Shown piece by piece: positions 36,414 to 63,609 of a stretch of DNA of 64,000 nt. The stretch comes from an uncultured Gammaproteobacteria bacterium. Its GTDB lineage: Bacteria; Pseudomonadota; Gammaproteobacteria; UBA9214. How positions within the stretch are numbered: the stretch's first letter is position 1; each line of letters begins with the position of its first letter. The position numbers and the translations under genes were made by a program. Under the pieces are notes generated by a model. That model ran no database searches. It saw only the letters and a list, made by a program, of their open reading frames with translations, and was not told where the DNA came from. The stretch is from positions 223,761-287,760 of the forward strand of contig CAVPAE010000007.1 in the NCBI GenBank assembly GCA_963701455.1, given 5' to 3'.

Positions 36414-36766
36414 TACCGCCCCCGTTCCCCAGGATGTACAAACACCGCAATATCTGTACCTGCATATCGGACCTGCAGCGAAAGTTCTCAACCAGCCAGG
36501 CAACCCAGAAATACGTATCCGGAGGGGCTCTCATGCTTGAGAAATTCCATAACCCACTGCTTTTACTAGTGAATACACTGCACCACAGAACATAAACACA
36601 GAATCACACAAATGTGACGGACTTCACTATTTGGGAGGATATTCCCATTTGTTGATATACTATGCAACATTCAATTACAGGATTGCCGATGCAGTCACAC
36701 AACAGAAAAGCTTTCAGAAAACATAATTCACATGCGAGCACAGAACCCGCGTACAGGTAGACACCG

Positions 36767-42233: not shown

Positions 42234-42917
42234 TCAAAGTAAAGAAGGATCTCTCCGGGGATCGGTCTGTCTTGTCAATGCCTGGTATTCACGCACCAGG
42301 TCACCGGCACTCGCAAAACCCTCCATGCGAACCCAGCCTGTTTGCGGTGCAGCATGCATGAATGTCAACGGTATGTGATTCATCTTGTCGCGCCGGTATG
42401 CATCAAAAGCTTTCAGCACCGCCACGATGTCTTCACGATCCCCGGTCAGAAACGTCCAGCCTGTGCTGGCCTGGAAACGCTGCGCATATTCCCGAAGTTT
42501 TGCCGGAGTATCATGCTCAGGATCGATGGTAACTGAGATCATTCGAACATTATCCGCTTCAGGACCAAGGGCCTTCCGGGTCTGGGTAAAGCTGGCACTC
42601 AGGACCGGACAGATAGTTGTGCACGTGGTAAATATAAAATTCAGCATCACCGGCTCATTACCCTCCAGCATGTCGTGCAGGGAAACCTTCCTGCCGTCCT
42701 GATCGGTCAGTACGACATCGGGCACCTGGTATTCCTGTTCCTTGCGGACATAGCCCTTTTGCTGCAGCATCTGCCTGTGCTGCGAATGATCAACTCCATG
42801 CTGGTGCATATGGTGGGCAGCATCTCCGTCATCCAGGGCATGACCGGACGATGCCATGCCGAACGTAACCAGCAGGCCCATCATCCTGCCCGCAAACCTT
42901 ATTTTGTTATTCAGCAT
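42234..42917 (-). CDS. SCO1/SenC-family thioredoxin-like copper chaperone
   Basis: Membrane anchor, His-rich stretch (HHMHQHGVDHSQH), CxxxCP motif (FTTCTTICP), DPEHDT motif. Start at MLNNKIRF (42917). Confidence 0.8.
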   Translation of the reverse strand: MLNNKIRFAGRMMGLLVTFGMASSGHALDDGDAAHHMHQHGVDHSQHRQMLQQKGYVRKEQEYQVPDVVLTDQDGRKVSLHDMLEGNEPVMLNFIFTTCTTICPVLSASFTQTRKALGPEADNVRMISVTIDPEHDTPAKLREYAQRFQASTGWTFLTGDREDIVAVLKAFDAYRRDKMNHIPLTFMHAAPQTGWVRMEGFASAGDLVREYQALTRQTDPRRDPSLL

Positions 42918-42985
42918 GTCGTATTCTCCTTTTGTAATAACGTCCCTGCTTGTTGATATTCCCCGCGGCAGAGCCACAGCCGCTT

Positions 42986-44707: not shown

Positions 44708-44742
44708 TAATCGCCTGAGCAGTTACCTGTATTCTAGGAGTC

Positions 44743-44908
44743 TCTGAACAAGTCCCGACTCGTCATTCCGGCGCATGCCGGACAAAAGCGCAAGGCGCGT
44801 TGAACGCCCGGAGGGCGGCCCGCAGGGTGAGCGAAGCGAAGCATCCTGGAAATCAACAAGCTGGACCCCGGCTTTCGCCGGGGTGACGACTTATTCAGGA
44901 TTTCCTTG
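44743..44908 (+). repeat. ~167-bp interspersed repeat family C, full copy
   Basis: About 90% identical to 46618-46784. Contains the hairpins cattccggcgcatgccgg and ccccggctttcgccgggg. Confidence 0.85.
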
Positions 44909-44919
44909 ATTCATTATCG

Positions 44920-46596: not shown

Positions 46597-46617
46597 CAGA
46601 ATCACCTTGAGGAGAAA

Positions 46618-46784
46618 CTGAACAAGTCCTGATCCGTCATTCCGGCGCATGCCGGACAAAAGTGCATGGCGCGTTGAACGCCCGGAGGGCGGCCCGCAGG
46701 GCGAGCGAAGCGAGTCATCCAGGGAAATCAACAAGCTGGACCCCGGCCTTCGCCGGGGTGACGACTTATTCAGGGTTTCCTTGA
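46618..46784 (+). repeat. ~167-bp interspersed repeat family C, full copy
   Basis: Direct repeat of 44743-44908. The two copies flank the protease gene. Confidence 0.85.
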
Positions 46785-46804
46785 GCTTCAGGCTTTTCAT
46801 GGCA

Positions 46805-47308
46805 TCACTCCACAACGATGTGCTCTTGCCTGAAGTCACCGATCACCAGGGTGACCTGATCTCCAGCCTTGACGGCACGGCCGGGATTGGCAAAGAACAT
46901 AAAATAGTTCCGGTCCACCTTGGCAAACTTCGGTGCCTGGCGCAGCGGCCCGATCTTGGCCGAGACCGGCACCTGCAGCTTGTGGCCGTTTTTTTCCACG
47001 ATCAGCTGCGGTTTAATCTTGCGGTCCATGATGGCAGCGGCCTTTTCCGGGTCCAGCATCCGGAACCGGAAATCCAGCATGTAATCAGCCGCGGTCCGGC
47101 GGATCCCGATGACACGTATCCCCCAGGGATCTCCGGGGTCTGCCTGTTCCTGCTCAGCAACGTTCGGCACTGCGACACTTGTTGCAAAGACCAGCTGTCC
47201 TGGCATAAACATGAACGCAAGCCCCAGCACCACCAGCAGGGCTACCGCGATTTGTACGGTATGGACGCATACCCCCAAGGTGATCCGCCTGGTCTGAGTC
47301 TGTTGCAT
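46805..47308 (-). CDS. membrane-anchored periplasmic hypothetical protein (167 aa)
   Basis: A single TM helix (IAVALLVVLGLAFMF) then a soluble domain. Lies between the MCO-like triad and the protease. Confidence 0.45.
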   Translation of the reverse strand: MQQTQTRRITLGVCVHTVQIAVALLVVLGLAFMFMPGQLVFATSVAVPNVAEQEQADPGDPWGIRVIGIRRTAADYMLDFRFRMLDPEKAAAIMDRKIKPQLIVEKNGHKLQVPVSAKIGPLRQAPKFAKVDRNYFMFFANPGRAVKAGDQVTLVIGDFRQEHIVVE

Positions 47309-47420
47309 GGTTTTATTCCCCTTCAGTCGTGATCAAACAATAGTCCGATCTCTCTACCAGTTCGTCAGTCATTGCAAGCAGTGGCGGGTACCTCCCCCAC
47401 TGGAGAGGTACCCGGAGCAC

Positions 47421-49244
47421 TTATTTCAGGATATCCACCCGGACGGTAGCCTCATTCGAGGTCGCGTCGAGATCATCCATGACGGTGTAGCCGAGCGCAT
47501 CCGAGCCGCGCTTGCCGGCGGTCGGCGTGTAGGTGATTGTGCCGTTACCGTTGTTCACCGCAGCGCCCTTGCGCGGGTTGCTGGTGATGATCACGGTATT
47601 GGCGACAACCGTACCGTCGTCGGTGTCATTGGCGACCACATTGATGGTCACGGAGTTGGTGCTGGCACCGGTATTACGCATCACCGTGGCGTAGTCGTCG
47701 TTGGCTACCGGAGACTGATTACCTGGCGCCGCATTGACCGTGACTGTGACCGTCGCGGAGTCGACACCACCATTGCTATCAGAGATGTCATAGGTGAAGG
47801 TTTCGTCACCGGAGAATCCCGCCAGCGGGCTGTAGGTCACGGTATTGCCATCCGTCGTGGCCGTTCCACCATTATCCGTTGCACCTACCGCAGTTATCGT
47901 CAGCGCATCGCCATCCACGTCGGTATCGTTGGCCAGCACGTCGAGACTGTTGTTGATCGAATCCTGGGCTACGCCAAAGGGATCGTCGACTGCAACCGGA
48001 TCATCGTTGAGCGGCGTTACCGTTACGCTCACGGTCGCGGCATTGGAAATATTCCCTGCCGTATCACGAACCGTGTAGGTGAAACCGTCCGCCCCGCTGA
48101 AATCGGGACTCGGGGTATAGGACACGGTACCGTCGTTAATCGCAACAGCCTGACCGTTGACCGCCGGACTGGCGATCGCCACTGTTGCCAGATCAATCGG
48201 ATTCCCGACAGGCGTATCGTTTGCCAGGACGCTGATGCTGCTGCCTGTCGAATCCTCCGCCACGGACGACACATCATCGACCGCCGTTGGCCCGGGTACC
48301 GCCGCGGCCACCGACAGATTGGTGAGCATCCCGCTACGCAGACGCCGGTCATACACGGGGTAGGTACCATTGGCGGCCGGCGTGAAGATCGCATCCTTTG
48401 TCTTGCCAGCGGCCATCAACACCGTGTGCTGCACGCGCGGGAAGGGATAGACATTGCCGTCCTCTGCAACCAGGGTCATGTGCTGGCCCTGCAATACCAT
48501 GGCATGGTCTTCCAGGCCTGCATTGAGCAAGCGGACCAGTGTATTGCTGCCTGCTGTACCGGCAGGCAAAGGCGCATCACCGGGCACAAAGGGGGCGCCA
48601 TTGACCAGGAAATATTTCGGTGCATAGTTGATCGTGCTGGGATAGCTTGCTGTCCCGTAGGTGCCACCGGCCACGGCTGCGTGCAGGGCCGGATCGATCT
48701 CGCTGTACAACAGCGACACCTCGCTATCATAGGAAATACCCGCATAGGCCTCTCCGGTCTGCGCATCGTGCGTCACCGCGCCGTACAGGCCCATCTGCAC
48801 CTGCACCGCCGGGTGTGTACCACTCGAATACAGGAAGGTCCCCGGTTTGAGGTTGCTCCATGCATAGATCCCGGTGGCTGCAGGGAGCGTCTCGTGGGTA
48901 AACGAACGCACCCGCTGCCGGCCCTGGTCATCGGTAAAAAACACCGGTGTCATTGCCGCCTGCTGGCCGGAGATCACGATCGACACCGGACTGGCGAGTT
49001 CATTACGCAGGTTGACCGTGAGCGTAGTGTCACCTACCGGCACCGTCAGCTGCGGGCCCGGTACGGTTGGCGTGCATGGCACACCCGTGTCCAGCCCGTA
49101 GCCCCACATGGTTATCACTGTGCTATCCGGCATGGTCAGGGTCGTCGTGCCGGCGCAGAGATCGTAAGTCACCGCACCGGCCTGGCCGGCAGCCGTCAGC
49201 AGGGCGGTGAGTGCCACACCTTGTTTGATTGATCTTATGTTCAT
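47421..49244 (-). CDS. secreted cupredoxin/multicopper-oxidase-like protein with degenerate Cu sites + C-terminal tandem Ig-like (cadherin/VCBS-like) domains
   Basis: Signal peptide. N-terminal ~330 aa are paralogous to the 49266 and 50569 genes (MWGYG..PGP.L.V; LEDHAMVLQGQHMTLVAEDGN aligns with HPFHFHGNHVTLIGRDGR). There is no HCH motif. Three Ig-like repeats (VAEDSTGSSISVLANDT..., ...LDVLANDTDVDGDALTI...). The 641-aa antisense ORF is R/G/H-rich junk. Confidence 0.7.
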   Translation of the reverse strand: MNIRSIKQGVALTALLTAAGQAGAVTYDLCAGTTTLTMPDSTVITMWGYGLDTGVPCTPTVPGPQLTVPVGDTTLTVNLRNELASPVSIVISGQQAAMTPVFFTDDQGRQRVRSFTHETLPAATGIYAWSNLKPGTFLYSSGTHPAVQVQMGLYGAVTHDAQTGEAYAGISYDSEVSLLYSEIDPALHAAVAGGTYGTASYPSTINYAPKYFLVNGAPFVPGDAPLPAGTAGSNTLVRLLNAGLEDHAMVLQGQHMTLVAEDGNVYPFPRVQHTVLMAAGKTKDAIFTPAANGTYPVYDRRLRSGMLTNLSVAAAVPGPTAVDDVSSVAEDSTGSSISVLANDTPVGNPIDLATVAIASPAVNGQAVAINDGTVSYTPSPDFSGADGFTYTVRDTAGNISNAATVSVTVTPLNDDPVAVDDPFGVAQDSINNSLDVLANDTDVDGDALTITAVGATDNGGTATTDGNTVTYSPLAGFSGDETFTYDISDSNGGVDSATVTVTVNAAPGNQSPVANDDYATVMRNTGASTNSVTINVVANDTDDGTVVANTVIITSNPRKGAAVNNGNGTITYTPTAGKRGSDALGYTVMDDLDATSNEATVRVDILK

Positions 49245-49265
49245 GTCTATTCCCCCGCCCTGCGT

Positions 49266-50540
49266 TTATGGAATCGGAACACCGTTGGGCTCGACGATCA
49301 TCATGGTCATCATGCCGCCCGGAAAGATGTCGTTGTTGGCAAGTTCTTTCTCTGCATGGGAATGCCACATGAAGAACATGCCCCCGTCCAGGTTCAGACC
49401 GCCCTCGCCCGGCGGCAGGTCACCAAACTGACCCAGGAACGGGCTGCCGCGGTAGAAGCCACCAAAGGTCATGTCCTGGATCGCCGGCAGTACCACCGGT
49501 AACTTCTTGCCGTGATCCGGCGCGTATTCGTTGGGTTCCAGCGGGTCGCCGTTTTTGTGGCCGTAGATGTCCCAGCCGAGCTTGTAACCGGTCCAGCTCC
49601 ACAGGGCATCATAGGTCGAGCCCGGCACCGCCTGCAGGGTGAAGTCGACACGCGCCAGGTCAGGTCCCGCTCCGGGCGTGCTCTCCAGCATGCGACCGTC
49701 GCGACCGATGAGGGTGACGTGATTACCGTGGAAGTGGAAGGGATGCAAGTCCCGTCCGGCGCTGATCACCCGCGCCAGTACTGTCTCACCGACATGCGTC
49801 CGCGGCAGGATGTTGTAGGGCTGGTTCGGCAGCCACGGGGCATATGCATCCGCCATGGTATCCGGACCATTGCGGCCGTTGATGAACCACAGCACCGCCT
49901 TGTGTTCGCTGTTGTCGATGACATCGTACAGTTCCAGCGAGGCGTAGTAATGGACCATCGGGTCCATTTCGGTGAGCAGGAACAGGTATTCCTGGTCGAA
50001 CGCCGTGTCCGGATGATTGTAGGCCTGGTTAGCAGCAGCAGGCCGGACGATGATGGCGCCCAGCAGGCCCATCTCGACCTGCAACTCCGGGCGCGTGCCG
50101 CTGTTGTACAGGTAGGTTCCGGGATTACTGGCGGTAAAGGTGTAGGTCACCTTGTCCGCTAGCGCGGGCCCGGTACTCTCCTGGGTCAACAGTCCCGCTG
50201 AGCCGCCGGTTGCACTCACCCCCTCCTGACCGGGAAATACCAGCGACACCGGCATGTTCGGCACGCCGAGCGCATTGGTCAGGTTGATGGTAATGGTATC
50301 GCCCTGGTCGACGATCAGCGTCGGCCCGGGATACTGCATTTCGCCGTCATCCAGCGCGTAACCCCAGACCAGCAGGCTGTCACCGTCCGGCGTGGAGATA
50401 ATGGCCGGTTTTGCAGTGAAGTCGAAGTTCGTTCCGGTGACGCCGTCGATGGCCGCCTCGGTCCTGGCACCCGCCAGGGACATCAGCAGCAGGGCAAATC
50501 CCGCCAGCCAGTGTCCGGTTTGCAGTGTTTTCGTATTCAT
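49266..50540 (-). CDS. multicopper-oxidase-like protein lacking the type-1 Cu cysteine (HSH instead of HCH)
   Basis: Signal peptide. HPFHFHGNH fits the HxxHxH motif. FMWHSHAE occupies the position of the HCH motif with Ser replacing Cys. Confidence 0.7.
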   Translation of the reverse strand: MNTKTLQTGHWLAGFALLLMSLAGARTEAAIDGVTGTNFDFTAKPAIISTPDGDSLLVWGYALDDGEMQYPGPTLIVDQGDTITINLTNALGVPNMPVSLVFPGQEGVSATGGSAGLLTQESTGPALADKVTYTFTASNPGTYLYNSGTRPELQVEMGLLGAIIVRPAAANQAYNHPDTAFDQEYLFLLTEMDPMVHYYASLELYDVIDNSEHKAVLWFINGRNGPDTMADAYAPWLPNQPYNILPRTHVGETVLARVISAGRDLHPFHFHGNHVTLIGRDGRMLESTPGAGPDLARVDFTLQAVPGSTYDALWSWTGYKLGWDIYGHKNGDPLEPNEYAPDHGKKLPVVLPAIQDMTFGGFYRGSPFLGQFGDLPPGEGGLNLDGGMFFMWHSHAEKELANNDIFPGGMMTMMIVEPNGVPIP

Positions 50541-50568
50541 GGACTTATCCCCCGGTTCCGGTCTGTTG

Positions 50569-51828
50569 TCATAACCCGATGTGGATTTCGGTCATCATGC
50601 CGCCGAAATCCTCGTCGTTGTTGCTGAGATAATTCAGGTTGGTGGTGTAGAGGAAGTAGGTCCCCGGCGCCACGCCCGCTGTATCGATAATTGCGTCAAC
50701 CGACTCGCCCCCGCCCAGCGTCACCGAAGCGGTGTCGTAGTACAGTTCCTCGCCGCTGGCCACGCCGCCGCCTTTCAGGATGCGCGCGCCGGTGCCCACC
50801 ACCTTCATGGTCAGCCCCAGGGTAGTCAGGGTGTAGTAGCGGGTGACGTTCAGGTTGGAGATGCGCAGCAGGATCTTTTGCCCGGCAGTGGCCTCAATCC
50901 GTGAACTGACCGGCTGGGAGGTGCTGAGCGGGCTAACAGCAGTTGGGAAATCCCCAGCTCTGACAGGATTGGCGCCACTCTCCAGTGTGTGCGGAAAGTC
51001 GAAGGTACTGGCATCGGCGGTATCAGGGTAGCCGCGGCCGTTCAGCATGGCATAGCGGTCGGTCATGTTGGCAAACGGCAGCGGCTGGGTATTCATGCTG
51101 GCATCGTGAAAGTCCGGATCGAAGGAACCGATCTGGATGGGAAACTCGACGTCATAGCCGGTTGAACCGTCGGTGTCGTTGTACACAAACTTGTTATAGC
51201 CACCAATGGTGGTCCCGTTCTGTGCCGGCCTGACATAGAGGTTGCCCAGCATGCCCATCTGCATGTGCTCGGTAGCCTCGACATGACAGTGATACATGTA
51301 GGTGCCGGGCTCCGCGAGATTGTAGTAATAGGTCACGCTGGCCCCCATGTTGATGGAGATGGTGGCATCCGGCACCCCGTCGAAGATATCCGAGGCGTTC
51401 GGGAAACCGTGGAAATGCACGGTATGCGGATCGGCCAGATCCGGACGCATCAACATGCCGTAGTTGGTCAGCGTCAGGTAGAATTCCTTGCCCTCGTCCA
51501 GCACGATGGTCGGCGCTGGAAAGTTTGCTGCCAGAATGCTCGCATCGAGTGCCTGGTCATGGGGCACACCCGTCAGGTCGACGAAGCTGAACATGTACTG
51601 CAGCCTGCGGATGTCATCGGACATGCTGACAAAACCGTCCCCGGCGCCCAGGTGCATGCACCTCACATTCGCGGTTGACTGTCCCTTGTGCATCGCCTTG
51701 TCAACTACGGCATCGCCATCGGTATCACCGGGACACTGCACCAGGGCCGCGGCACCTGCCAGGCCCGGCAATCCCGTCAACAGCAACAGGAGTGCAGCGG
51801 CAAGTGGATTTACGTGGTTGTCTTTCAT
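50569..51828 (-). CDS. multicopper oxidase with intact type-1 copper motif
   Basis: RBS GGAGGA lies 7 nt before ATG 51828. Signal peptide MKDNHVNPLAAALLLLLTGLPGLAGAAA. HTVHFHG, then YMYHCHVEATEHMQMGM (HCHxxxxHxxxxM). C-terminal cupredoxin domain ends FGGMMTEIHIG. Confidence 0.75.
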   Translation of the reverse strand: MKDNHVNPLAAALLLLLTGLPGLAGAAALVQCPGDTDGDAVVDKAMHKGQSTANVRCMHLGAGDGFVSMSDDIRRLQYMFSFVDLTGVPHDQALDASILAANFPAPTIVLDEGKEFYLTLTNYGMLMRPDLADPHTVHFHGFPNASDIFDGVPDATISINMGASVTYYYNLAEPGTYMYHCHVEATEHMQMGMLGNLYVRPAQNGTTIGGYNKFVYNDTDGSTGYDVEFPIQIGSFDPDFHDASMNTQPLPFANMTDRYAMLNGRGYPDTADASTFDFPHTLESGANPVRAGDFPTAVSPLSTSQPVSSRIEATAGQKILLRISNLNVTRYYTLTTLGLTMKVVGTGARILKGGGVASGEELYYDTASVTLGGGESVDAIIDTAGVAPGTYFLYTTNLNYLSNNDEDFGGMMTEIHIGL

Positions 51829-51889
51829 TGGTCTATCCTCCTGTGTGCCCCGGGGTGGAGGCATCCCACCCCGGAACGCTAGCCCTTGG

Positions 51890-54800
51890 TTACGGCGTGA
51901 ACTCATCAGCCCCGATGTCGTCACGGTTCCGCCAGACCGTCGTCGGCCGGGTATCGCCGTCAATATCAACAGCCGGTGCATTATCATTGTTGTTACCTGC
52001 GCCCCTGTCGATTGCGGCCAGCCTTGAGACTGACGTATCGACAAGGTGGTAATCACCCGTCGGTGCCAGCGGGCCAAAGCGGACCTGGATGAAGTTGCCA
52101 CCCTCGTCGAAGGCCGGTTGCGTGGCGATGGTGGTGGTGAGTTCCACCTGCTGGATGGTCTCGCCGTTGTCGGTATTGACGTATGGCAGAACAAACAGGT
52201 CCAGTGGATCGGTGATACCGCTGCCGTCACGGTTGTTGTTGTGGTAACCAGTAGTATCAGTCAGCAGGTTGAAACGCGGGTCCAGCGAACCGGTCGCACC
52301 GAGCACTGCCAGGTCCTGGTAGGGCGTGGCGGCACTGTTCAGACCGTACACCGCAGGTTCCACCGTCGTATCGATCTCGAAGAAGAACGACCGGTTGCGC
52401 CAGACAATGTTGTTCAGCAGCAACGGCTTGGAGAACACACCGTATTGATTTTGCCGGTTATTGGGTATTTCGCCGTTCAGTGCCGAGCTGTGCGCACGCG
52501 AGACGATACCCGCCGGTTGCGCCGTAGACTGGTTCGGACTGCCGGGTGCAAATGCCTCACCCGCCGTGGCCGTGGAGTCATTGTGGGCAACGGTGTTGTT
52601 GACGATGTTCACTCTCACCGTATCCTGCAGGGCGATACCGCCGGCAGCCATGCCCGCCATGTTGTTGACGACGATGTTGTTGACAATATCCAGCGGATAC
52701 CAGCCGTTTGGATTGTTTGATGCTTGCACATCTGTGCCGTTGACAGCCGCGGCCGCGATACCGCCACCGTCACCGGCACCGGCCTGGTTACCCTGGATGA
52801 CGTTGGACAGGATCTGTACCGGACCGGACCCCGGGCTCAGTGCGCCGGGATTCAGGGCCGCAGCGCCGCCGATGAAGATGCCACCGCCGTTGCGTGCCTG
52901 CCCCTGGTTAAAGGACTGGTTGAACATGATGGTGTTGTTGGCGATGAGACCCGAGAGCACCGTATTTCCGGATCCAAAGCCGCCACTGCGGCCATAGTGG
53001 CCGATGCCGCCGCCGTCACCCTGGGTGAAGTTACCGCAGATGGTGTTGTCCGTTACCTGGTAACTGTCACTGCCGTGATACAGGCTGACACCGCCACCGG
53101 CACCATTGCCGCTGCCGTTCCCGGCAATCAGATTATGGTGGATACGGATGTTGTCATTGAAGCCGTCCTGGTAGACCAGATTGGCGCCCTGTTCAAGGGC
53201 CAGGAACGGATGACCGACGCGGATACCGCCGCCGTAGATGCCATGATTGCCGAAGATACGGTTATTAGACATTTCCAGGTTTTCGGCATAGCCGTTGACC
53301 ACGATACCGCCGGCACTGTCCGACCCGGTAATGCTGAGGCCGTCGATACGTGACACATTTTTACCGAAAGTGTCGTCCTGCGTACTCCCTGTACCATCCA
53401 GGCCCAGCACGATGATGCCGGGGCCTTCCTCGGTGAACAGGACGTCCGGTTCACCGGCCACGCCGAACCCGACCTCCTGGGCCGGCAGCAGGTGATACTT
53501 GCCCTGGGTGTGCAATGTCTCGACATCCTGGCGCCAGGCGGTGATTTTCTCGCCCGGCGACTTGATGGCGCTGATGGTGGTGGAAGCGCCCGAGCCCTGC
53601 AGGCGCACCGGCTTGTGCATGATGACCAGTTCCTCGTACTCGCCCGGCGGCACCAGTATCAGGTCACCGGGACTGGCCACATCGATGGCAGCCTGGATGG
53701 AGCCGCCCGGGGCCACCTGTATTGCACCGCCACCCACCGTCACGGTGATACCCGCGACAGTCGACCGACCGTTGTCACCCCGGGTGATCTGCAACTGACC
53801 GGTGGTGGTACCGGCGGTCACCGTGCCGCTGATGGAACCGTTCGACCAGCTGACGTTCGTCAGTGGAACGCCGCTGATAGTGACGCTACCCGTCCCCTGG
53901 GAAGCGCCGAAGCCATAGTCGCGGCCGCCGGGGTCCTGGGCTGCCGTGATCGTGATTGACTGCGTGCCGTCGGCAACATACGGATTGTTGCCGTTGGGTG
54001 CCGGTGCGTCGACGTATGGTCCGCTCAGTGAGCCGACTACCGACCAGATTACCGGCGTACCATCCTGGTCCCGGCAGTCCAGCGGCTGCTGGTTCGGGCC
54101 CGTAAAGGCTGCGACGGGTACCACCGGTGTATCCAGGAAGGTGGTCACGCCCGGCATGTACTGGAAGGTGTAGCAGAACTGGCTGTACTGCGAGTTATAG
54201 TTCGGATCCGTGACGAAACCACCGGCACCATCGGGAATGGGGCCCGGATCATTCATGCAGGTGGTGACCATGTTCGGCGAAGTGCCACTGGCACTTGCAT
54301 TGCTGTTGGTAAACATGGAGGGCAATACCGCATTGAACGTGCCCCAGCGGTCGGAGTAGGTGCGCGCATACTCCCGCCCCTTCCAGTCGCGAATCGACAC
54401 CGGCAGGTAGGGCGGCGAGTACTTCTCGCCGAAGGTCGGTGAATTGGGGTCAAACTCGTTCGACAGATCGTCGAGAATGAACCCTGTTACCTTCGCCGCC
54501 ACCGGCACCTGGGTGAACATGAAGAAGTCGGCCGCCGCGTTCTTGCCATCGGTCAACAGGACCTGCTTGCGGTCGCACAACGGGGTATCGGTGCCGGCCA
54601 GGAATGGTGATTCTCCTGGAATCGGGAATAGCGAGAAATCATCGGGCACCAGGTGCAGGTCACCGACACAGACCGGTGGCAACAGTTCAGGCGCCGGCAC
54701 GAACTCATCACCGAAGTCCACGTTGCGGTCTTCTTCCTTGAGTGTCTGGTAGACCGGGTGCTCACCGGTAGCGACGATGTAGATGCCCTTGGGCAAGGAA

Positions 54801-57022
54801 TCCACCTCGGCAGCGCCCGAATCGACGCCACCCGGCACGTAGGAATCGAAGGCATAACCACCGTCGAACACCGCCGGGCGTACCTGGTTGTAGTTACGTA
54901 TGCCGTCGTAGCAATCCGTCGGTACCGAACCATTGACCATGAAAACGTCACCCTGGCAGCCGGTCGGGATGTTGTCGTCCCAGCTGTCAGTGGTGCTTAT
55001 CTGGATGGCATCACCGCCGTCGAAGCTGCCGTTTTCCGAATCGGCCAGCGGCGCACAACCGTTGAGCGGATCCAGCGCAGGGTAGTCGAAGTCCTCGGCG
55101 CCCGGGAAGTTGCCAAATGGATAGTTATCCACATCCGCCAGTGTCTGGCAGCCATCGCCGTTGAGGTCGTCAATCACGCCATCGCCACCGGGGGGAATAT
55201 TATCCTCGTACAGGACCACCTGGATGCGCGGTATACCCGGCTCCCACAACTCGGCGCCGGCATAGGCCGGATCGTCCTCGGCGCGGGTCACGGCATAAAA
55301 GACGATTCCCGAAATGCCGCCGTTCTCACCGATCACGTAGGGTTTCTTGCCCCACTGGATGACATTGGTCTGGCCGAGGAAGGCCTGTACGCCCTGGGTC
55401 AGCACCGGCCCGGTCTCGGTACGGTAGGAAGCGCCACCGTTCTCTGACTGGGGCTGGGGATTGAGCACGCCATCAAATGACCAGGGATCATTGGGGTCGA
55501 CCGGCCCGCCGTCATCCACGATGATGGTTGCACCGGTTGCCTTGTAGCGGGTAAAGCCGACTTCCGCGACCAGCCAACTGAAGAAGGGGAATACCTCGTC
55601 ATAGGGCGCGGCCCCGCCAAGGTCCGTGGGGAATCCCTGGTAGATGGTGCCATCACGCCAGCGCAGCGCGGTGCCCTCTTCGAACATCGGCGCCTCTCCG
55701 GCGTCCCAGAAGCCGTTTTCGTTCTGGTCGTTGAATACGTGTTGTTCGACACGGCCAAACCAGGCAAACACCGGCACATCCAGCAGGCTGCAGCTGCCAC
55801 CATTACACTGGCCGTTCAGAACGGTGACACCCTGGGAACCGAAGATGTAATCCAGATTCTTGTCCCAGATCGCCAGCTGGTAATTGCCATCGGGCACGCC
55901 GGAAATAGAGAACTTGCTGTCCTCGTCACAGGGGACCGCGATGACACCCTGGCCGATATTGACTGCCAGGTCGTTGAGACCAACCCAGCAGCCGGGTACG
56001 GGTGCCCCGGTATGAAAAGCAAAATCCGGCGGGCGCGAGTTATGGATACTGCGCACCTGGCCGGTGATAGTGACACCACCGCCGAGTGTGGCACCATTCT
56101 GGAGTCCTTCCCTGACGAAACCCATAAACACGTGCGGGCCTGGCGGGCCGAACTCGGTGAAGAACGGCGGTTCATTAGCCTTCACCCAGGCATCGATAAT
56201 CTTCTTGCCCTCGAGGGTGGTGGTCTGTGACCAGCTGGTCGGATCGCCATTTGCATCGGTGGTTGGTGGAACTGCCTGGATGCCATACTTGGCCGGGACG
56301 AGGTTCTTGATCAGGGCGATACCGTTCGCATCGGTCGTGACGGTGCCATCCCCCAGGCTGACAACATTGCCGGCATTGCCATAGGTGGTGCCGAGCGGGT
56401 TGCCGAAGGCATCCGTGGTGATCTGCTGGCCGGAGATACCGTAGCGACCACCGGCATCCTCGAGCAGGATATTGAATCCGCCCAGCCCGACTTCTTCCGG
56501 GGTATCCGGTGCACCGTTGATAGGCCAGTTATCCTCGAAGATGAAGATACGGATCTGCGCCGTGGGAACAGGATGCTCATTGACGCTGATCGGGACAATG
56601 ACCTGACCCGCCGCGATCTGCGCACCGCCCATGCTGAAGCCTGAATCGGGCAGTATGGACACATAGTAGCGCTTGTTGTCATCCAGGGCTGGCAGGGAGG
56701 AAGGATCACTGGAATGACCTTCCGCGACGACCGGCAGGTAGCTCTTGTGGAAGTTCACCGACAGGCAGTCAGCCTCAAAATCAGGCTGGCAGGTCTCCCC
56801 CGGCACGATGTCGTAGGTGACATCCTCTTCAATCAGCCAGCGATAAGCCGGAACAGGTACCGAGCCGCCATTGGCGTCAACGCCGGTTACATTCAGGACA
56901 GGCACTGCAGCCGCCACAGGCCAGGCAATCAGCACGCAGGTGAGCAACGCCACAAGACCTGAGTAGCGGCTGACAAGCAATTCCCCCCAACTCTTTTCCC
57001 AATGAATAGTGATTGCGTTCAT
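51890..57022 (-). CDS. giant (about 1700 aa) secreted/surface protein: N-terminal signal-anchor, SdrD-B/carboxypeptidase-regulatory-like region, C-terminal right-handed parallel beta-helix repeats
   Basis: TM/signal segment LVALLTCVLIAWPVAAA. The C-terminal ~500 aa have repeated beta-helix rungs (NNRIFGNHGIYGGGIRVGH; NLIAGNGSGNGAGGGVSLYHG; NTICGNFTQGDGGGIGHYG; NNTIMFNQSF; NVIQGNQAGAGDGGGIAA; NNIVVNNMAGMAAGGIALQD). The antisense ORFs are low-complexity. Confidence 0.7.
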   Translation of the reverse strand: MNAITIHWEKSWGELLVSRYSGLVALLTCVLIAWPVAAAVPVLNVTGVDANGGSVPVPAYRWLIEEDVTYDIVPGETCQPDFEADCLSVNFHKSYLPVVAEGHSSDPSSLPALDDNKRYYVSILPDSGFSMGGAQIAAGQVIVPISVNEHPVPTAQIRIFIFEDNWPINGAPDTPEEVGLGGFNILLEDAGGRYGISGQQITTDAFGNPLGTTYGNAGNVVSLGDGTVTTDANGIALIKNLVPAKYGIQAVPPTTDANGDPTSWSQTTTLEGKKIIDAWVKANEPPFFTEFGPPGPHVFMGFVREGLQNGATLGGGVTITGQVRSIHNSRPPDFAFHTGAPVPGCWVGLNDLAVNIGQGVIAVPCDEDSKFSISGVPDGNYQLAIWDKNLDYIFGSQGVTVLNGQCNGGSCSLLDVPVFAWFGRVEQHVFNDQNENGFWDAGEAPMFEEGTALRWRDGTIYQGFPTDLGGAAPYDEVFPFFSWLVAEVGFTRYKATGATIIVDDGGPVDPNDPWSFDGVLNPQPQSENGGASYRTETGPVLTQGVQAFLGQTNVIQWGKKPYVIGENGGISGIVFYAVTRAEDDPAYAGAELWEPGIPRIQVVLYEDNIPPGGDGVIDDLNGDGCQTLADVDNYPFGNFPGAEDFDYPALDPLNGCAPLADSENGSFDGGDAIQISTTDSWDDNIPTGCQGDVFMVNGSVPTDCYDGIRNYNQVRPAVFDGGYAFDSYVPGGVDSGAAEVDSLPKGIYIVATGEHPVYQTLKEEDRNVDFGDEFVPAPELLPPVCVGDLHLVPDDFSLFPIPGESPFLAGTDTPLCDRKQVLLTDGKNAAADFFMFTQVPVAAKVTGFILDDLSNEFDPNSPTFGEKYSPPYLPVSIRDWKGREYARTYSDRWGTFNAVLPSMFTNSNASASGTSPNMVTTCMNDPGPIPDGAGGFVTDPNYNSQYSQFCYTFQYMPGVTTFLDTPVVPVAAFTGPNQQPLDCRDQDGTPVIWSVVGSLSGPYVDAPAPNGNNPYVADGTQSITITAAQDPGGRDYGFGASQGTGSVTISGVPLTNVSWSNGSISGTVTAGTTTGQLQITRGDNGRSTVAGITVTVGGGAIQVAPGGSIQAAIDVASPGDLILVPPGEYEELVIMHKPVRLQGSGASTTISAIKSPGEKITAWRQDVETLHTQGKYHLLPAQEVGFGVAGEPDVLFTEEGPGIIVLGLDGTGSTQDDTFGKNVSRIDGLSITGSDSAGGIVVNGYAENLEMSNNRIFGNHGIYGGGIRVGHPFLALEQGANLVYQDGFNDNIRIHHNLIAGNGSGNGAGGGVSLYHGSDSYQVTDNTICGNFTQGDGGGIGHYGRSGGFGSGNTVLSGLIANNTIMFNQSFNQGQARNGGGIFIGGAAALNPGALSPGSGPVQILSNVIQGNQAGAGDGGGIAAAAVNGTDVQASNNPNGWYPLDIVNNIVVNNMAGMAAGGIALQDTVRVNIVNNTVAHNDSTATAGEAFAPGSPNQSTAQPAGIVSRAHSSALNGEIPNNRQNQYGVFSKPLLLNNIVWRNRSFFFEIDTTVEPAVYGLNSAATPYQDLAVLGATGSLDPRFNLLTDTTGYHNNNRDGSGITDPLDLFVLPYVNTDNGETIQQVELTTTIATQPAFDEGGNFIQVRFGPLAPTGDYHLVDTSVSRLAAIDRGAGNNNDNAPAVDIDGDTRPTTVWRNRDDIGADEFTP

Positions 57023-57516
57023 CAGCGTTCCCCCAATCTGTTTTTCGGTTTTTCTGGCTGGCCACCACACGGCGACGCTACAGATCCATATTCCCTACAC
57101 ATCAGTCAGTTACTGCACAGATTCCGCAACATTCGATCACTACAGGTACTGTGACAAAACCAACTACTCCGGCAGCACTACAACACTTGTGGGGTAACTG
57201 TAGGCGGATTGAGTCTCAAAGAGAGGTAGTTCAACACCGTATTTCACGGCACCAATGCACGATAAATCAGGTAGGGTATTCCGGTAGCTTCAGGCTACTG
57301 CACCGGGTTTCTGCGCCTGGAATTCAGCCCGGATAAATGGCACGGACCAACCCGGCAAGGGACAGAACAAGGGACGAGTAAACGCCATGCGCCTGGCCAC
57401 CGATAATCAGGGGGATATATTTGCAGGAATGGAACGACAAGCGTCGTTAATGAAAGCGCACTGCTACTAGAGGTAAAAGAAACAGCCCTGCCAGGCCGAA
57501 ACGGAACGATCCCGAA

Positions 57517-57924
57517 TCAGTGGCGCAGGCTTTTGCTTATGGTCCCCTCGACACGGGCCAGTATATCTTCTATGCAGGAGTCGTCTCCCTTTGAGAGAAA
57601 ACAGTCCGCGCCGTTCCGGAAGGCCTCCTGACGATACTCGGGCAGATCGTAGCTGGTAAGAATAACGATCACAATGTAGTCATACACCAGCTTTATCTTT
57701 TTGGTCACCTCCAGTCCATTTTCTCCAGGTAACTGGATATCCATAAAGATAATATCCGGACGCAGATACTCAACCTTACTCAAGGCCTCTCCTCCATCTC
57801 CAGCCTCGTCAACACCAATCAACGGGAAGTACGAGAGCAATATATCCGAGAGTGAATTTCGGAATGTGACATTGTCTTCAACAAGCAGCGCATGGAACAT
57901 TGATGCCTCCTCAGCCGAATGCAT
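57517..57924 (-). CDS. single-domain response regulator (CheY-like receiver)
   Basis: LLVEDN...DIIFMDIQLPGENGLEV...ILTSY...K. Start is either ATG 57924 or 57900. Confidence 0.75.
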   Translation of the reverse strand: MHSAEEASMFHALLVEDNVTFRNSLSDILLSYFPLIGVDEAGDGGEALSKVEYLRPDIIFMDIQLPGENGLEVTKKIKLVYDYIVIVILTSYDLPEYRQEAFRNGADCFLSKGDDSCIEDILARVEGTISKSLRH

Positions 57925-58173: not shown

Positions 58174-60264
58174 TTAACCAGTGAATCCCGGGCACTTGTT
58201 GTAGCGCCTGCGAAATAACTGACCCACCAGTGATATCAGCAGCAGGACATACAAAGTCGGATCAAGCACGGCACCGGGCCTGACACTGCAGCCACCGCCC
58301 CCACCCCCTCCGCCGTTATTTACCAACGCATTTGCATTTGCATTGTCAGTGGTAACTGACACCGTGTCGGGCGCACTGCCCACCATCCCGTCGTTGACGA
58401 TCAACTGCGCCACATAGGTACCGGGCAGATCTGCCACAAAAGCAGGATTGACTGTTGTTGCATTCGACAGCGTCGCTGTGCTGCCCGCCGGCACACTCGC
58501 CAGCGACCAGGCATAAGTCAGTCCATCACCGTCCGCATCATACGAGCCACTGCCGTCCAGCGTCACGGTATCGCCCACCAGCACCGACTGGTCCGCACCG
58601 GCAGCGGCCACCGGCGCGGAATTATCGGTGCTGATACTCACGCTGTCAGGCGCACTGCCCACCATCCCGTCGTTGACGATCAACTGCGCCACATAGGTAC
58701 CGGGCAGGTCTACCACGAAGGTGGGCTTGACTGCCGCGGCATTGGACAGCATGGCCGCGCTGCCCGCCGGCACACTCGCCAGTGACCAGGCATAGGTCAG
58801 TCCATCACCGTCCGCATCATGCGAGCCACTGCCGTCCAGCGTCACGGTATCGCCCACCAGCACCGACTGGTCCGCACCGGCAGCGGCCACCGGCGCGGAA
58901 TTATCGGTGCTGATACTCACGCTGTCAGGCGCACTGCCCACCATCCCGTCGTTGACGATCAACTGCGCCACATAGGTACCGGGCAGGTCTACCACGAAGG
59001 TGGGCTTGACTGCCGCGGCATTGGACAGCATGGCCGCGCTGCCCGCCGGCACACTCGCCAGTGACCAGGCATAGGTCAGTCCATCACCGTCCGCATCATG
59101 CGAGCCACTGCCGTCCAGCGTCACGGTATCGCCCACCAGCACCGACTGGTCCGCACCGGCAGCGGCCACCGGCGCGGAATTATCGGTGCTGATACTCACG
59201 CTGTCAGGCGCACTGTCCATCTTCCCGTCGTTGACAACCAGCTGCGCCACATAGGTACCGGGCAGGTCTACCACGAAGGTGGGCTTGACTGCCGCGGCAT
59301 TGGACAGCATGGCCGCGCTGCCCGCCGGCACACTCGCCAGTGACCAGGCATAGGTCAGTCCATCACCGTCCGCATCATACGAGCCACTGCCGTCCAGCGT
59401 CACGGTATCGCCCACCAGCACCGACTGGTCCGCACCGGCAGCGGCCACCGGCGCGGAATTATCGGTGCTGATACTCACGCTGTCAGGCGCACTGTCCACC
59501 TTCCCGTCGTTGACAACCAGCTGCGCCACATAGGTACCGGGCAGGTCTACCACGAAGGTGGGCTTGACTGCCGCGGCATTGGACAGCATGGCCGCGCTGC
59601 CCGCCGGCACACTCGCCAGTGACCAGGCATAGGTCAGTCCATCACCGTCCGCATCATGCGAGCCACTGCCGTCCAGCGTCACGGTATCGCCCACCAGCAC
59701 CGACTGGTCCGCACCGGCAGCGGCCACCGGTGGATTATTGCCCTGACTAACCAGCTGGATTTCAGGCGTGTAGGCCCACAGGGTGGCATCCTCGCCACCT
59801 GGTGGATTCCTGTACGTCACAACGATATTACCGTCAGCACCCGGCGCAACTGGCGACCCATCGATAAACGTGCCGCTGAACAGATAGGCAGCGCGATAAG
59901 TCAACACCACGGAATTGACACGCGACGGCGGGTTGCCACCCTCGTACTTTAACTGCAATACGCTCTCGACATTCCCTCCCCCGGCGTCGAAGATGCTGTA
60001 TTCCGTCAAGCCGGCGCTGACTACACACCCGTTACATAACGAGGTGGCTGGAAACAGCGGCTGGCCTATATCGACCTGCTCATAGTCGCCAGCAAGGTTG
60101 GTGAAATCCCAATCATAGGTTACCGTCCGCTGAACCGTATCTACCGTCGTCGTGATCGTCACACCATTCGACATCATCGCGGTCATGGCCGCGGCCGATG
60201 CAGCACCAGCCAATCCTACACATAGCAATAACAGTAATAGTTGAACTCTTGTTATTAGCCTCAT
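58174..60264 (-). CDS. secreted protein with 5-6 tandem PKD domains and a C-terminal GlyGly-CTERM/PEP-CTERM-like sorting tail
   Basis: Signal peptide MRLITRVQLLLLLLCVGLAGAASA. Repeated 93-aa unit APVAAAGADQSVLVGDTVTLDGSGSHDADGDGLTYAWSL... (PKD signature). C-terminus reads NNGGGGGGGGCSVRPGAVLDPTLYVLLLISLVGQLFRRRYNK. Confidence 0.8.
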   Translation of the reverse strand: MRLITRVQLLLLLLCVGLAGAASAAAMTAMMSNGVTITTTVDTVQRTVTYDWDFTNLAGDYEQVDIGQPLFPATSLCNGCVVSAGLTEYSIFDAGGGNVESVLQLKYEGGNPPSRVNSVVLTYRAAYLFSGTFIDGSPVAPGADGNIVVTYRNPPGGEDATLWAYTPEIQLVSQGNNPPVAAAGADQSVLVGDTVTLDGSGSHDADGDGLTYAWSLASVPAGSAAMLSNAAAVKPTFVVDLPGTYVAQLVVNDGKVDSAPDSVSISTDNSAPVAAAGADQSVLVGDTVTLDGSGSYDADGDGLTYAWSLASVPAGSAAMLSNAAAVKPTFVVDLPGTYVAQLVVNDGKMDSAPDSVSISTDNSAPVAAAGADQSVLVGDTVTLDGSGSHDADGDGLTYAWSLASVPAGSAAMLSNAAAVKPTFVVDLPGTYVAQLIVNDGMVGSAPDSVSISTDNSAPVAAAGADQSVLVGDTVTLDGSGSHDADGDGLTYAWSLASVPAGSAAMLSNAAAVKPTFVVDLPGTYVAQLIVNDGMVGSAPDSVSISTDNSAPVAAAGADQSVLVGDTVTLDGSGSYDADGDGLTYAWSLASVPAGSTATLSNATTVNPAFVADLPGTYVAQLIVNDGMVGSAPDTVSVTTDNANANALVNNGGGGGGGGCSVRPGAVLDPTLYVLLLISLVGQLFRRRYNKCPGFTG
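58310..59700. repeat. tandem array of five near-identical 279-bp units (PKD modules) inside the CDS
   Basis: Antisense ORFs 58819-59064 and 59098-59343 give 80 of 81 identical residues (one HPVVDDQ/LPVVDNQ-region difference) 279 bp apart. The coding repeat is 93 aa. Confidence 0.85.
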
Positions 60265-60616
60265 CCCCCTCTCCCCGAAAGTCAGTGTTCTTGCGTGAGA
60301 CCGAATTGCGACTTGTCACGCTTGAGCCTAAAGGAATCGTCTCTATGGAAAAGGTAGGGAAACACCCCAGAATCGATCTTAAAACACTCTATTTTCATGC
60401 CTGCAGACGTAACAAATGCGGCTATTAAGTACAACTTACTGAATCTAAGTATATTTACGGATTGCCAATATTCCGGCTGTTGACTAGCATGATAAGGTAA
60501 TCCTGATTAACTCATGCGTCTCGTCCCTCACCATGAGGCTTTAACCAGTAGGTTCTAAATAATGCCTGTTACGTAATACGGTAGTAAAGAATTAGAATCA
60601 ACCTTAGGGAGAAAAG

Positions 60617-61273
60617 GTGATGCTAAAACAAAAAGTCCTCCTCGCCGAGGATCATGCAATATTACGGGAAGGCCTGCGAGCCTTGCTTTCAAGTACACCT
60701 GAGCTGGAAATCATCGGAGAAGCCGAGGATGGACAGGAAGCTATCAACCTGGCCAGACAACTCGAACCAGACCTTATCCTGATGGACCTCACCATGCCGA
60801 ACATCAACGGCACAGAGGCCATGCGCACGATAAAGCGCAACAGTCCCGACATCAAAATCATTGTGCTGACCGTTCACAAGTCAGAAGAGTATGTCCGGGC
60901 CACTCTGGATGCGGGTGCGAATGGTTATGTCCTCAAGGACGATACACATAGCGACCTGTTAACTGCCATTCTGAACGTGCAGAAGGGTAATGTGTATTTG
61001 AGTCCCGGCATCTGTGACAAAGTAATCAACGGCTACCTTGACACCTCCACTCGCGACACTTTCTCTATACCTTGGAACCAGCTCACTGTACGTGAACGCG
61101 AGGTAACAAAACTCATAGCCGAAGGCAAAAAGAGTCGGGAAGTTGCCGATTACCTTTCGGTGAGTCTCAAGACTGTGGAAAAGCACCGTTCCAACCTCAT
61201 GAGGAAACTTGATCTCCACAATGTTTCGGCAATAACCAAGTACGCCATTGAAAACAAGCTGGTGCAGCTATAG
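60617..61273 (+). CDS. LuxR/NarL-family response regulator (REC + HTH_LuxR)
   Basis: VLLAEDH...LILMDLTMPNINGTEA...IIVLT...K, then a C-terminal HTH (EREVTKLIAEGKKSREVADYLSVSLKTVEKHRSNLMRKL). Confidence 0.9.
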   Translation: MMLKQKVLLAEDHAILREGLRALLSSTPELEIIGEAEDGQEAINLARQLEPDLILMDLTMPNINGTEAMRTIKRNSPDIKIIVLTVHKSEEYVRATLDAGANGYVLKDDTHSDLLTAILNVQKGNVYLSPGICDKVINGYLDTSTRDTFSIPWNQLTVREREVTKLIAEGKKSREVADYLSVSLKTVEKHRSNLMRKLDLHNVSAITKYAIENKLVQL

Positions 61274-61339: not shown

Positions 61340-63609
61340 TCAAGTCCCCACGATAGCCGGCCATGCGGCACGGATGAGCGTGCCAGCTCCTGGCACTGAT
61401 TCAAGATCGAACTCCCCGCCCGAAAGCTCCACCCTGTTACGCATGCCGCTTAGCCCGAAACCATGCACCGGGCATAAGGTTTCCGGCATAATTCCCTTGC
61501 CGTCGTCTTTAACCGACAGGGTGAGCATGCCGCCTGTATTCAGCAACTCGACTGATATGCTACCTGCTTCCGCGTGCTTGCCCGTATTATTCAGTGACTC
61601 CTGAACAACCCTGAATATCACGATTTTCTGAAGATCTGACAGATCACTTTCCGCAACATCAATCTGCAAATCCACAGAGATCGACGGAAAGTGAGTAATA
61701 AATTCCCTGATGAACCATTTAACCGTTGCCTTCAATCCCAGGTCATCGAGAATTGACGGTCTGAGGTTCATGGAAATATTTCGTACTTCATCAATAGTGT
61801 CACGCAGTTTCTCGATAATACCGCGCAGGTATAGCTTACCCGAACCCGGCAAGCTGCTCTCATATTCCCGCATGGCATTTTCCATACCGAATTTGATCGC
61901 ACTGATACTTTGACCGACGCTGTCATGCAGCTCCGACGCAATCCGCTTCCTTTCCGCTTCCTGGGCTTCCATGAGTTTTCCCGAGAGAATCTTGAGCTCG
62001 CACTGAGAGCGGCGCAGGGCATCCTCGGTATTTTTCTGCGCTGTGATATCTATGATGTTCCCCATAATCATGAATTCGTTCGCGCAACCAACCCTGGTCA
62101 GATTTCTTTGCAACCAGAGCGCCCTCCCGTCCCGGGTCACACCCTTGATAATTCGTTCTTCAGATGCCCACTCCTCTTCCGCAATCGTGCCATTCATGTC
62201 TGCACTGCTTCTGCTTCTGCACGAGGAAACAAAACCTGCATATCCAATGTGGCGACTTCTTCCTGCGTGTATCCGAATATTTCCGCAAACCGGTTATTGC
62301 AGAAAACAATACGCTTGTCTTGCATAACGTAGAGCCCGGTCAGCGTGGTCTCCACGAGGCAGGTGTATTTTTTTTCTGATTCTCTCAGCGCTTCCCCATC
62401 ACGCATGTGGTCCTGGATTTCTCCCCTCAATGCTGCATTCGCCTTTGTGAGGTCTATCGTTCTTTCTTGCAGTCGCTTCTCCAGTTCCTCGTTGTAATCC
62501 TGCATGACCCGTTCAGCCCGCTTCTGCAGGCTGATGTCCTCAATGACCAGGAATGCAAAACCTTCCTCCTCTATACCATCCTCATATTGAGACTTTTTGC
62601 ATTTGTTAATGGAACATCGCAGGTCCTGTCCCGGGGTTGCATTATGGTATTCACATGTCACGAAGTCGGTATTCAGCAGTTGTTGCCACATGTCATAGAA
62701 TTTTGTTTTCAGCGCGCAACGCCAGTTGCTGCATCCGGGATGGATGACATCGTGCACATGTTTCCCTCTCACCGAGGTAACATCACCCAGCCCCCATGTC
62801 TCCAGCGTCCGGTTGGACCTGATTACATGTCCGTTCTCGTCTATCAGGCACACCAGTTGCGGCAGGGCATCCAGCGTGCTTTCCCACTGGTGTTTTGCCT
62901 GAATAACCTGCTGCATATTGCGGGTATGCGCCAATTCCGCATGTTCACTTTCGACGGTCAGGCTCAACATGTTCATCATTGCACGCAGAAACACGGCATC
63001 CTGCCCTGAAAATACAACACCGGATTCCGAACTACCGGCAAACGCCGCCAGGTTGCCATCCCTGCAGGGCACCATAACGAATATGCCGGCGCCAAGCGTG
63101 TATTTCTCCAGGATCGCGACTGAAGGAATATAGATGTTTCCCTGCAGTTGACCAGGACCAGGGCTAACATCCACCACCTCTGCGCAGCCGGGCTGTTGCG
63201 ACAATTCGGCAAGCGCATGCGCGAATCCCGCGGCAGTGGCCCGGTCCCAGCCGATGCTCGAGTTAAAGCGCGAGTCGGTATCAACAGCGCCGAGATCCTG
63301 AATCAGGATATGATCCGCAGGCAGCCCTGCAGCGATAACCTCGATTGCCCGACGCAACAGATTATTTATTTCCGTAGTGGAAAGTGCGTCGTAAACAGCC
63401 GAGATCATCTGTCTGCACCCGACAGTCCCGACATACCGCACGGACCCTGGTACTGCAGCCCCGGGACACTGCCTGTTTAGATCGATTTTAATTTTTTCCG
63501 GACAAGGGTAATCGGCAAACAACAGAAAATCACTCCCGGCACTCCCGTGCGGATTGGCAGAACGCTGGCCTTCAGAAACCGTAAGCATAATATTGGCGTT
63601 AGAATGCAT
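61340..63609 (-). pseudogene. GAF-PAS-PAS-HisKA_3-HATPase sensor kinase split by a frameshift inside a PAS domain (~62195)
   Basis: ORF 62194-63609 ends mid-PAS (...YVMQDKRIVFCNNRFAEIFGYTQEEVATLDMQVLFPRAEAEAV). ORF 61340-62197 begins with the rest of the same PAS domain (EEWASEERIIKGVTRDGRALWLQRNLTRV...NIIDITAQK), then the H-box ELHDSVGQS and HATPase_c. It is convergent with the LuxR-type regulator. Confidence 0.6.

Follow-up and report, generated by a model that had tools for sequence, protein, structure and literature searches.

The gene considered here lies on a 64,000-nt stretch of DNA, referred to below as the window, from an uncultured Gammaproteobacteria bacterium (GTDB lineage UBA9214; GenBank assembly GCA_963701455.1, contig CAVPAE010000007.1, positions 223,761 to 287,760 of the forward strand). 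Its product was found to be a new member of the known JDVT-CTERM class of sorting cargo, and it carries an undescribed N-terminal head domain in front of an array of PKD modules. The parts of the protein and their coordinates are listed in Table 1. The GC content of the gene at the three codon positions (0.63/0.52/0.69) is coding-like. Exact-sequence look-ups with the protein and its two flanking regulators, alternative start codons included, returned no entry.

The tail was assigned with the profile NF033191 (JDVT-CTERM), which gave 37.7 bits for the whole protein and 38.1 and 41.1 bits for the isolated tail, the cutoff being 27. The signal has been described as a single invariant Cys, a nearly invariant DP nine residues further on, a Leu-rich helix and an Arg cluster (Haft 2023, bioRxiv 10.1101/2023.06.07.544157). 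As read from the sequence, all four hallmarks are present with exact spacing. C659 is the sole Cys in the matched domain (residues 654-687), D668-P669 is at exactly +9 from it, and the Leu-rich hydrophobic segment TLYVLLLISLVGQLF is followed by RRR and then by nine non-conserved residues. A second Cys (691) is located past the Arg cluster and outside the domain; it is not conserved in the metagenomic relative P0023, which shares the Cys-to-DP spacing. JDVT-CTERM proteins typically occur once per proteome, with a beta- and gammaproteobacterial range (bioRxiv 10.1101/2023.06.07.544157), and only one was found within the 64-kb window.

An earlier, sequence-only reading had described this C-terminus as a G8 run, a hydrophobic helix and RRR, and had assigned it to rhombosortase or exosortase cargo with a GlyGly-CTERM/PEP-CTERM-like tail. 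The order of the parts was confirmed, since the tail reads ...NNGGGGGGGG-C-SVRPGAVL-DP-TLYVLLLISLVGQLF-RRR-YNKCPGFTG. The view that it is a sorting signal calling for a dedicated enzyme encoded elsewhere also holds, given the tripartite motif, transmembrane (TM) helix and Arg cluster. The class itself had to be changed: neither TIGR03501 (GlyGly-CTERM) nor TIGR02595 (PEP-CTERM) matched the whole protein or the isolated tail at E<=10 (HMMER filters can hide very weak matches), in contrast to the NF033191 scores. The PEP motif is absent, and the G8 run is parted from the helix by CSVRPGAVLDP. The MYXO-CTERM model, TIGR03901, gave 13.6 bits on the trimmed tail, below its cutoff of 20. The same reading had proposed that a genome without rhombosortase or exosortase, together with scores below threshold for both models, would reduce the tail to a plain TM anchor; this rule would give a false negative here, because it omits JDVT-CTERM as a third class.

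Searching with the last PKD module plus tail as query returned two metagenomic fragments, P0023 and P0028 (66% identity over 99% of the query). Their tail, GGGGCSVRTGAAPDPTLHLLMLLSLLGYLYRRR, keeps C, SVR, G-A, DPTL, the L/S/L/G pattern and RRR, while other positions differ. The residues after RRR (SSQRLGYVK and SSQRLEFEK) are unrelated to those of the window protein, and P0023 has GSGGGGGSSGGGG at the position of the ANALVNN plus G8 linker. The tail of P0023 scored 40.5-44.9 bits with NF033191; the JGI annotation labels it a MYXO-CTERM protein. Retention of C, DP and RRR in a 66%-identical relative whose flanks have drifted argues for selection on the recognition motif, not on hydrophobicity alone. 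L124, the contig bearing P0023, runs on into an orthologue of the receiver regulator located directly downstream of the gene in the window, and P0023 is thus regarded as a second instance of the same gene. Both fragments are truncated at the N-terminus and the head is not seen in them; among the recovered head-bearing proteins, the JDVT tail was found in the window protein only. A regular-expression search for Cys...DP...RR tails over 1.8 Mb of related loci and 30 metagenome loci found only the window's own gene, and a metagenome scan with the tail as query gave mostly PKD-only matches and one GlyGly-type tail.

As the tail belongs to the JDVT-CTERM class, the expected partner is MrtJ and not a rhombosortase or exosortase. 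MrtJ (NF033192) is a CPBP/Rce1-type glutamic intramembrane protease proposed as the JDVT-CTERM enzyme; it is encoded within 4 kb of 17 of 36 JDVT genes, directly adjacent in 16 of these 17, and the link also has an overwhelming phylogenetic-profile score (bioRxiv 10.1101/2023.06.07.544157). For its sister enzyme MrtX, experiments have demonstrated cleavage of MYXO-CTERM that depends on the Cys, and surface anchoring and display require the enzyme (Guo, Haft and Wall 2025, PMC11980579). In the window, where nearly all plausible open reading frames (ORFs) were searched by Pfam and/or NCBIfam, no exosortase, rhomboid or sortase was detected, and a six-frame scan disclosed no multi-TM frame with CPBP motifs. 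The earlier remark that no sortase-like partner is present in the window thus stands. The only multi-TM ORFs found there encode MddA, a CopD-like protein, a PHO4 phosphate transporter, NhaD, a DASS transporter and an unassigned five-TM protein. Two five-TM ORFs were considered as the missing protease and rejected, namely 9068-9919, which is CopD-like, and the unassigned 35445-36503, which has neither a family match nor CPBP motifs.

The stalk is an array with a 279-bp period (4.9 copies, 97% matches, 58365-59730) according to Tandem Repeats Finder (TRF). Pfam matches above the gathering score were obtained with the K319L-like PKD family PF22352 (210.1 bits) and with PKD_4 PF18911 (180.5 bits), five stretches each. 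In-register alignment defined modules M1 to M5. M1 and M2 differ by 2 nt per 279, M3 and M4 by none, and M1-M4 overall by 0-7, whereas M5 differs from the others by 35-40 of 279 nt (about 86% identity), nearly all beyond its first 72 nt. The near-identity first noted for five modules therefore applies to four. Position 73 of the module is C/T/C/C/T across M1-M5, a mosaic that, on the sequence, suggests exchange between PKD units. The near-identity of M1-M4 would reflect recent tandem amplification, by which the length of the stalk may be set, and copy-number variability of the array, also proposed earlier, is plausible. Plus-strand ORFs antisense to the array (58819-59064, 59098-59343 and 59656-59952, 81-98 aa) are generated by the repeat and were rejected as independent genes; likewise, promoter-like matches within the array merely recur each 279 bp.

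The head gave no Pfam or NCBIfam match. Among 5.8 billion proteins its homologues formed just six clusters, the 185,579 species genomes that were scanned contained none, and a profile search of 1.84 billion representatives extended the set to 17 clusters; as judged by these sequence searches, the head is a tiny undescribed family. All homologues have a similar hydrophobic leader ending in A-S/x-A, followed by a conserved (A)TITATM head start. With a shallow alignment of seven sequences, AlphaFold2 gave a predicted local distance difference test (pLDDT) score of 36. Distant members from the profile search were then added, and with the resulting 20-sequence alignment (A3) the model was an all-beta sandwich with pLDDT 91.2 and a predicted template modelling score (pTM) of 0.87. 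The predicted fold is a cohesin-like beta-sandwich. The likeness is at the level of fold only, since cohesin modules (PDB 2vo8, 2jh2) and the copper-binding protein YcnI (7me6) share 5-15% identity with the head at Foldseek E >=0.045. Foldseek against PDB gave no match at E<=0.001, the best E-values being >=0.045, and the head profile found nothing significant among PDB sequences (best E 0.064). Invariant columns of the alignment are T, D, Y, P and P, along with a few near-invariant residues, and it contains no conserved set of His, Cys or Met to suggest a metal site.

Members of the head family end in different ways. The C-terminal end of P0010 matched PEP-CTERM at 18.1 bits (cutoff 16), that of P0009 is PEP-CTERM-like at 15.8 bits, just under the cutoff, and that of P0016 is VPLPA-like at 24.9 bits (cutoff 25.35), with P0004-6 and P0017 being VPLPA-like and resembling P0016. 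Dockerin-like repeats occur at the C-terminal ends of P0002, P0003, P0010, P0013 and P0014, and one PKD domain at those of P0001 and P0019. P0007 (L088, 10001-12544) ends in seven PKD domains and a mono-haem cytochrome c domain (CAHCH). It closes a multicopper-oxidase operon, which hints at a link between the head family and electron transfer.

An operon of the same kind adjoins the gene in the window. It encodes a 1710-aa giant protein, three multicopper-oxidase-like proteins, a 167-aa ORF, an S8 subtilase, a periplasmic-binding-like protein and SCO1/SenC. Close head relatives (54-81% identity) were found in three positions, each beside or within this operon. The head gene occupies the slot seen in the window in L005, L006 and L004; in L001 it is between the binding-protein gene and SCO1, and in L088 and L089 it is past SCO1 at the operon end, where it encodes the protein with head, seven PKD domains and cytochrome c. 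In the closest genome locus, from a Thiohalomonadales metagenome-assembled genome (MAG; L020), the order of kinase, regulator, regulator and giant protein is the same, and the slot is empty. A slot so variously occupied, and empty in L020, thus holds variable accessory surface proteins. In L005 (8395-11449) and L006 (313-3361), the slot carries head plus dockerin-like and head plus VPLPA/PEP-CTERM-like genes and one for an unrelated 247-aa protein with a VPLPA-like tail; in the window it carries the single JDVT-tailed gene. The best matches of the giant protein are in the Thiohalomonadales MAG (75% identity) and in Thiohalomonas denitrificans (57%), an indirect sign of a host within the beta- and gammaproteobacterial range reported for JDVT-CTERM. 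On neighbourhood and fold, the most likely role of the head is hypothesised to be binding or docking in the service of the adjacent giant-protein/multicopper-oxidase operon.

Taken together, the protein is probably a cell-envelope display protein whose JDVT-CTERM tail would be processed by a MrtJ-family protease encoded outside the window. A Sec signal peptide would direct export. By analogy with JDVT-CTERM and MYXO-CTERM proteins, the protein, once exported, would then be retained in the inner membrane by its C-terminal helix, RRR lying on the cytoplasmic side, Cys659 would be modified, probably lipidated, by some enzyme, and the MrtJ-family CPBP/Rce1-type protease would cut just past Cys659, removing helix and RRR. 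The lipid-anchored product would reach the cell surface, probably through type II secretion. The beta-sandwich head of about 150 aa would be the working end, with the Gly8 hinge and five PKD domains serving as a spacer that holds it off the membrane. Several points weigh against this reading. No MrtJ/CPBP gene (NF033192/PF02517) was detected in the 64 kb, no CPBP protease is encoded in the 1.8 kb that follow P0023 on L124, and the published JDVT signature is often an adjacent gene pair (bioRxiv 10.1101/2023.06.07.544157). A window without MrtJ is no exception, since the gene lies nearby for only about half of the published JDVT genes. JDVT-CTERM processing itself is a proposed reaction, lipidation and type II secretion are extrapolated from MYXO-CTERM, and the function proposed for the head derives solely from gene neighbourhood and fold-level resemblance. 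In addition, distant members of the head family such as P0010 are not beside such an operon, so that the link between head and operon holds for the close subfamily only.

The same absences would fit a plain C-terminal anchor, in which the tail is a relic or look-alike that is never cleaved and the protein is tethered in the inner membrane, facing the periplasm. The nine extra residues past the Arg cluster are in line with this explanation, as is the lack of the gene in the closest Thiohalomonadales locus, which would allow that the gene was acquired without its partner. However, the score of the tail exceeds the curated cutoff by 11-14 bits, with exact Cys-to-DP spacing, its motif residues are kept in P0023 while the flanks drift, and a five-PKD stalk is hard to make sense of within the periplasm; a plain anchor is thus considered unlikely. 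Processing as rhombosortase (GlyGly-CTERM) or exosortase (PEP-CTERM) cargo is far less probable still. The glycine run ahead of the tail, the PEP-CTERM or VPLPA-like ends of P0010 and P0016, and the GlyGly-type tail of a related PKD protein (L100/P0088) would favour it, but the two models fail to match the protein or its tail, an intervening segment without a PEP motif separates glycine run and helix, and the window holds neither exosortase nor rhomboid. For the head, one explicit possibility is that a Gram-negative surface scaffold uses it as a docking module resembling cohesin, which would tether or chain operon components on the cell surface, the window protein being anchored via JDVT-CTERM about five PKD domains off the membrane. 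This was prompted by L005, where head plus dockerin-like and head plus PEP-CTERM-like paralogues are side by side, and by P0007, in which head and PKD are fused to cytochrome c; it is speculative and improbable as stated. Finally, the count of five modules might be an assembly artefact, 279-bp units having been collapsed or expanded so that the true number differs. M3 and M4 are 100% identical and M1-M4 are at most 7 nt apart, the contig of the sole relative with a JDVT tail ends inside its PKD array, and a nearby sensor-kinase gene has a frame change that is possibly a sequencing error. Against this, the frame is unbroken across all five modules and these show a consistent variant mosaic, not a featureless collapse. 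A miscount, which seems rather doubtful but is the least improbable of these alternatives, would touch the module number alone and not the nature of the protein.

Compared with the published JDVT-CTERM/MrtJ proteins (NF033191/NF033192), the window protein shares the tripartite tail, single Cys, DP at +9, Leu-rich helix and Arg cluster, and differs in having no MrtJ gene adjacent or within 64 kb and nine extra residues past the Arg cluster. In the searches made, a passenger with this head and five PKD modules did not turn up among named JDVT-CTERM proteins. The tail follows the logic of MYXO-CTERM/MrtX, with an invariant Cys, TM helix and Arg cluster; in that system a CPBP protease cleaves and adhesin-like proteins are displayed at the surface (PMC11980579), and the same is proposed here. 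It differs from MYXO-CTERM (TIGR03901) in its score (13.6 vs 20 bits), the DP in the helix region, the one motif Cys and the non-myxobacterial organism. The M36 metallopeptidases NF038112 (myxosortase-dependent) and NF038111 (rhombosortase-dependent) share with the window protein a K319L-like PKD stalk and a C-terminal sorting tail. Indeed, PKD array plus tail aligns to the end of NF038112 (profile positions 1187-1602 of 1604) with 350 bits, against a family cutoff of 1500 bits, so that the architecture of stalk and Cys-type tail has a precedent. The window protein has no M36 peptidase domain, its head being an unrelated beta-sandwich, and the NF038112/NF038111 pair is also a precedent for one passenger family with different tails. 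Tails of exosortase cargo, PEP-CTERM or VPLPA-CTERM, are found on the head-family members P0009, P0010, P0014, P0016 and P0004-6; that of the window protein matches neither model.

Table 1 Features of the JDVT-tailed gene and its neighbours, in window coordinates; residues refer to the encoded protein.
Feature	Residues	Position	Strand	Basis or remark
Whole gene, single ORF, predicted secreted surface protein	696 aa	58174-60264	-	ORF list; stop codon 58174-58176
Predicted Sec-type signal peptide, MRLITRVQLLLLLLCVGLAGAASA	1-24	60193-60264	-	read from sequence; cut before AAMTAMM
Head domain, about 150 aa, predicted all-beta	24-171	59752-60195	-	without Pfam or NCBIfam model
Five-module PKD array, K319L-like, 279 bp / 93 aa each		58336-59730	-	TRF, Pfam, register and pairwise differences, tblastn of module 1
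PKD module M1	179-271	59452-59730	-	in-register alignment
PKD module M2	272-364	59173-59451	-	in-register alignment
PKD module M3	365-457	58894-59172	-	in-register alignment
PKD module M4	458-550	58615-58893	-	in-register alignment
PKD module M5	551-643	58336-58614	-	in-register alignment
Linker ANALVNN + G8	644-658	58291-58335 (G8 58291-58314)	-	read from sequence
JDVT-CTERM sorting domain	654-687	58204-58305	-	NF033191 match
Cys659	659	58288-58290	-	within JDVT-CTERM domain
Asp668-Pro669	668-669	58258-58263	-	within JDVT-CTERM domain
Hydrophobic helix	670-684	58213-58257	-	within JDVT-CTERM domain
RRR	685-687	58204-58212	-	within JDVT-CTERM domain
Nine residues past Arg cluster, YNKCPGFTG, predicted cytoplasmic		58177-58203	-	not conserved; beyond profile match
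Divergent intergenic region, presumed promoter/operator		60265-60616		long conserved blocks vs L005, L004
NarL/LuxR-type response regulator, divergently transcribed		60620-61273	+	NCBIfam; equivalent position in L004, L005, L020
Single-domain receiver response regulator, directly downstream		57517-57900	-	NCBIfam
Linked operon		42234-57022	-	Pfam and/or NCBIfam; order same in L088/L089

The divergent intergenic region of about 350 bp is conserved with L005 and L004 about as well as coding sequence. Rfam found no family in or around the gene, this region included; operator sites of the neighbouring LuxR-type regulator, or else a structured leader, may be present in it. In L005, L006, L007 and L124, an orthologue of the receiver regulator is encoded after either the head gene or the JDVT-tailed gene, and the sole terminator-like site (57483-57498) lies beyond this regulator. 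Past the LuxR-type regulator, a PAS sensor kinase (61340-63609, minus strand) is split in two ORFs by a frame change from -2 to -1 with a junction near 62203-62215. Its orthologue in L005 is a single 689-aa protein; either the split is genuine, as a frameshift or pseudogene, or it stems from a sequencing error. The regulatory genes (57517-57900, 60620-61273 and 61340-63609) have 48-52% GC, compared with 58.7% for the window and 64.7% for the PKD array, a pronounced local shift in composition.

Within the operon, the giant protein has a weak NosD-like beta-helix match, one multicopper-oxidase-like protein carries cadherin/Big_9 repeats, and the S8 subtilase has a MopE-like copper motif. For the giant protein, 182 relatives were counted across genomes of Gammaproteobacteria, Desulfobacterota, Acidobacteriota and other groups; a literature search found no paper on the operon. 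Multihaem c-type cytochromes are encoded at 11-1741 (plus strand), 30071-33847 and 33862-35748 (both minus strand). Among them, repeated decahaem units of the DmsE/MtrA family (243 bits) mark a 1258-aa protein, one protein is MtrC-like and one is a multihaem protein of 628 aa. Taken with what may be an outer-membrane barrel (26938-27978), the cytochromes suggest a module for extracellular electron transfer near the copper-oxidase operon. Elsewhere in the window, a DUF255/thioredoxin-domain protein is apparently split (3461-4054 and 4280-5527, minus strand, 225-bp gap), maybe a frameshift or a truncated gene, and the ORF at 7340-8128 (minus strand) matches methanethiol S-methyltransferase MddA, with 279 bits against an equivalog cutoff of 270.

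When proteins are annotated, a tail consisting of glycine run, helix and RRR should be compared also with Cys-type signals (JDVT, MYXO, Synerg, CGP), besides GlyGly-CTERM and PEP-CTERM. The Cys-type class implies another enzyme and another chemistry, that is, cleavage by a CPBP protease after Cys modification and not by rhombosortase or exosortase, and the locus is a further case of JDVT-CTERM cargo without an adjacent MrtJ. More unusual than the tail are the head family, its interchangeable anchors and the accompanying operon. That a single passenger family occurs with no fewer than four different C-terminal ends makes it a clean example of anchor swapping in nature. The head is a small, undescribed and confidently foldable domain, genetically tied to a widespread and apparently uncharacterised operon of giant protein, multicopper oxidases and SCO1 near multihaem cytochromes, and this operon may merit study in itself.

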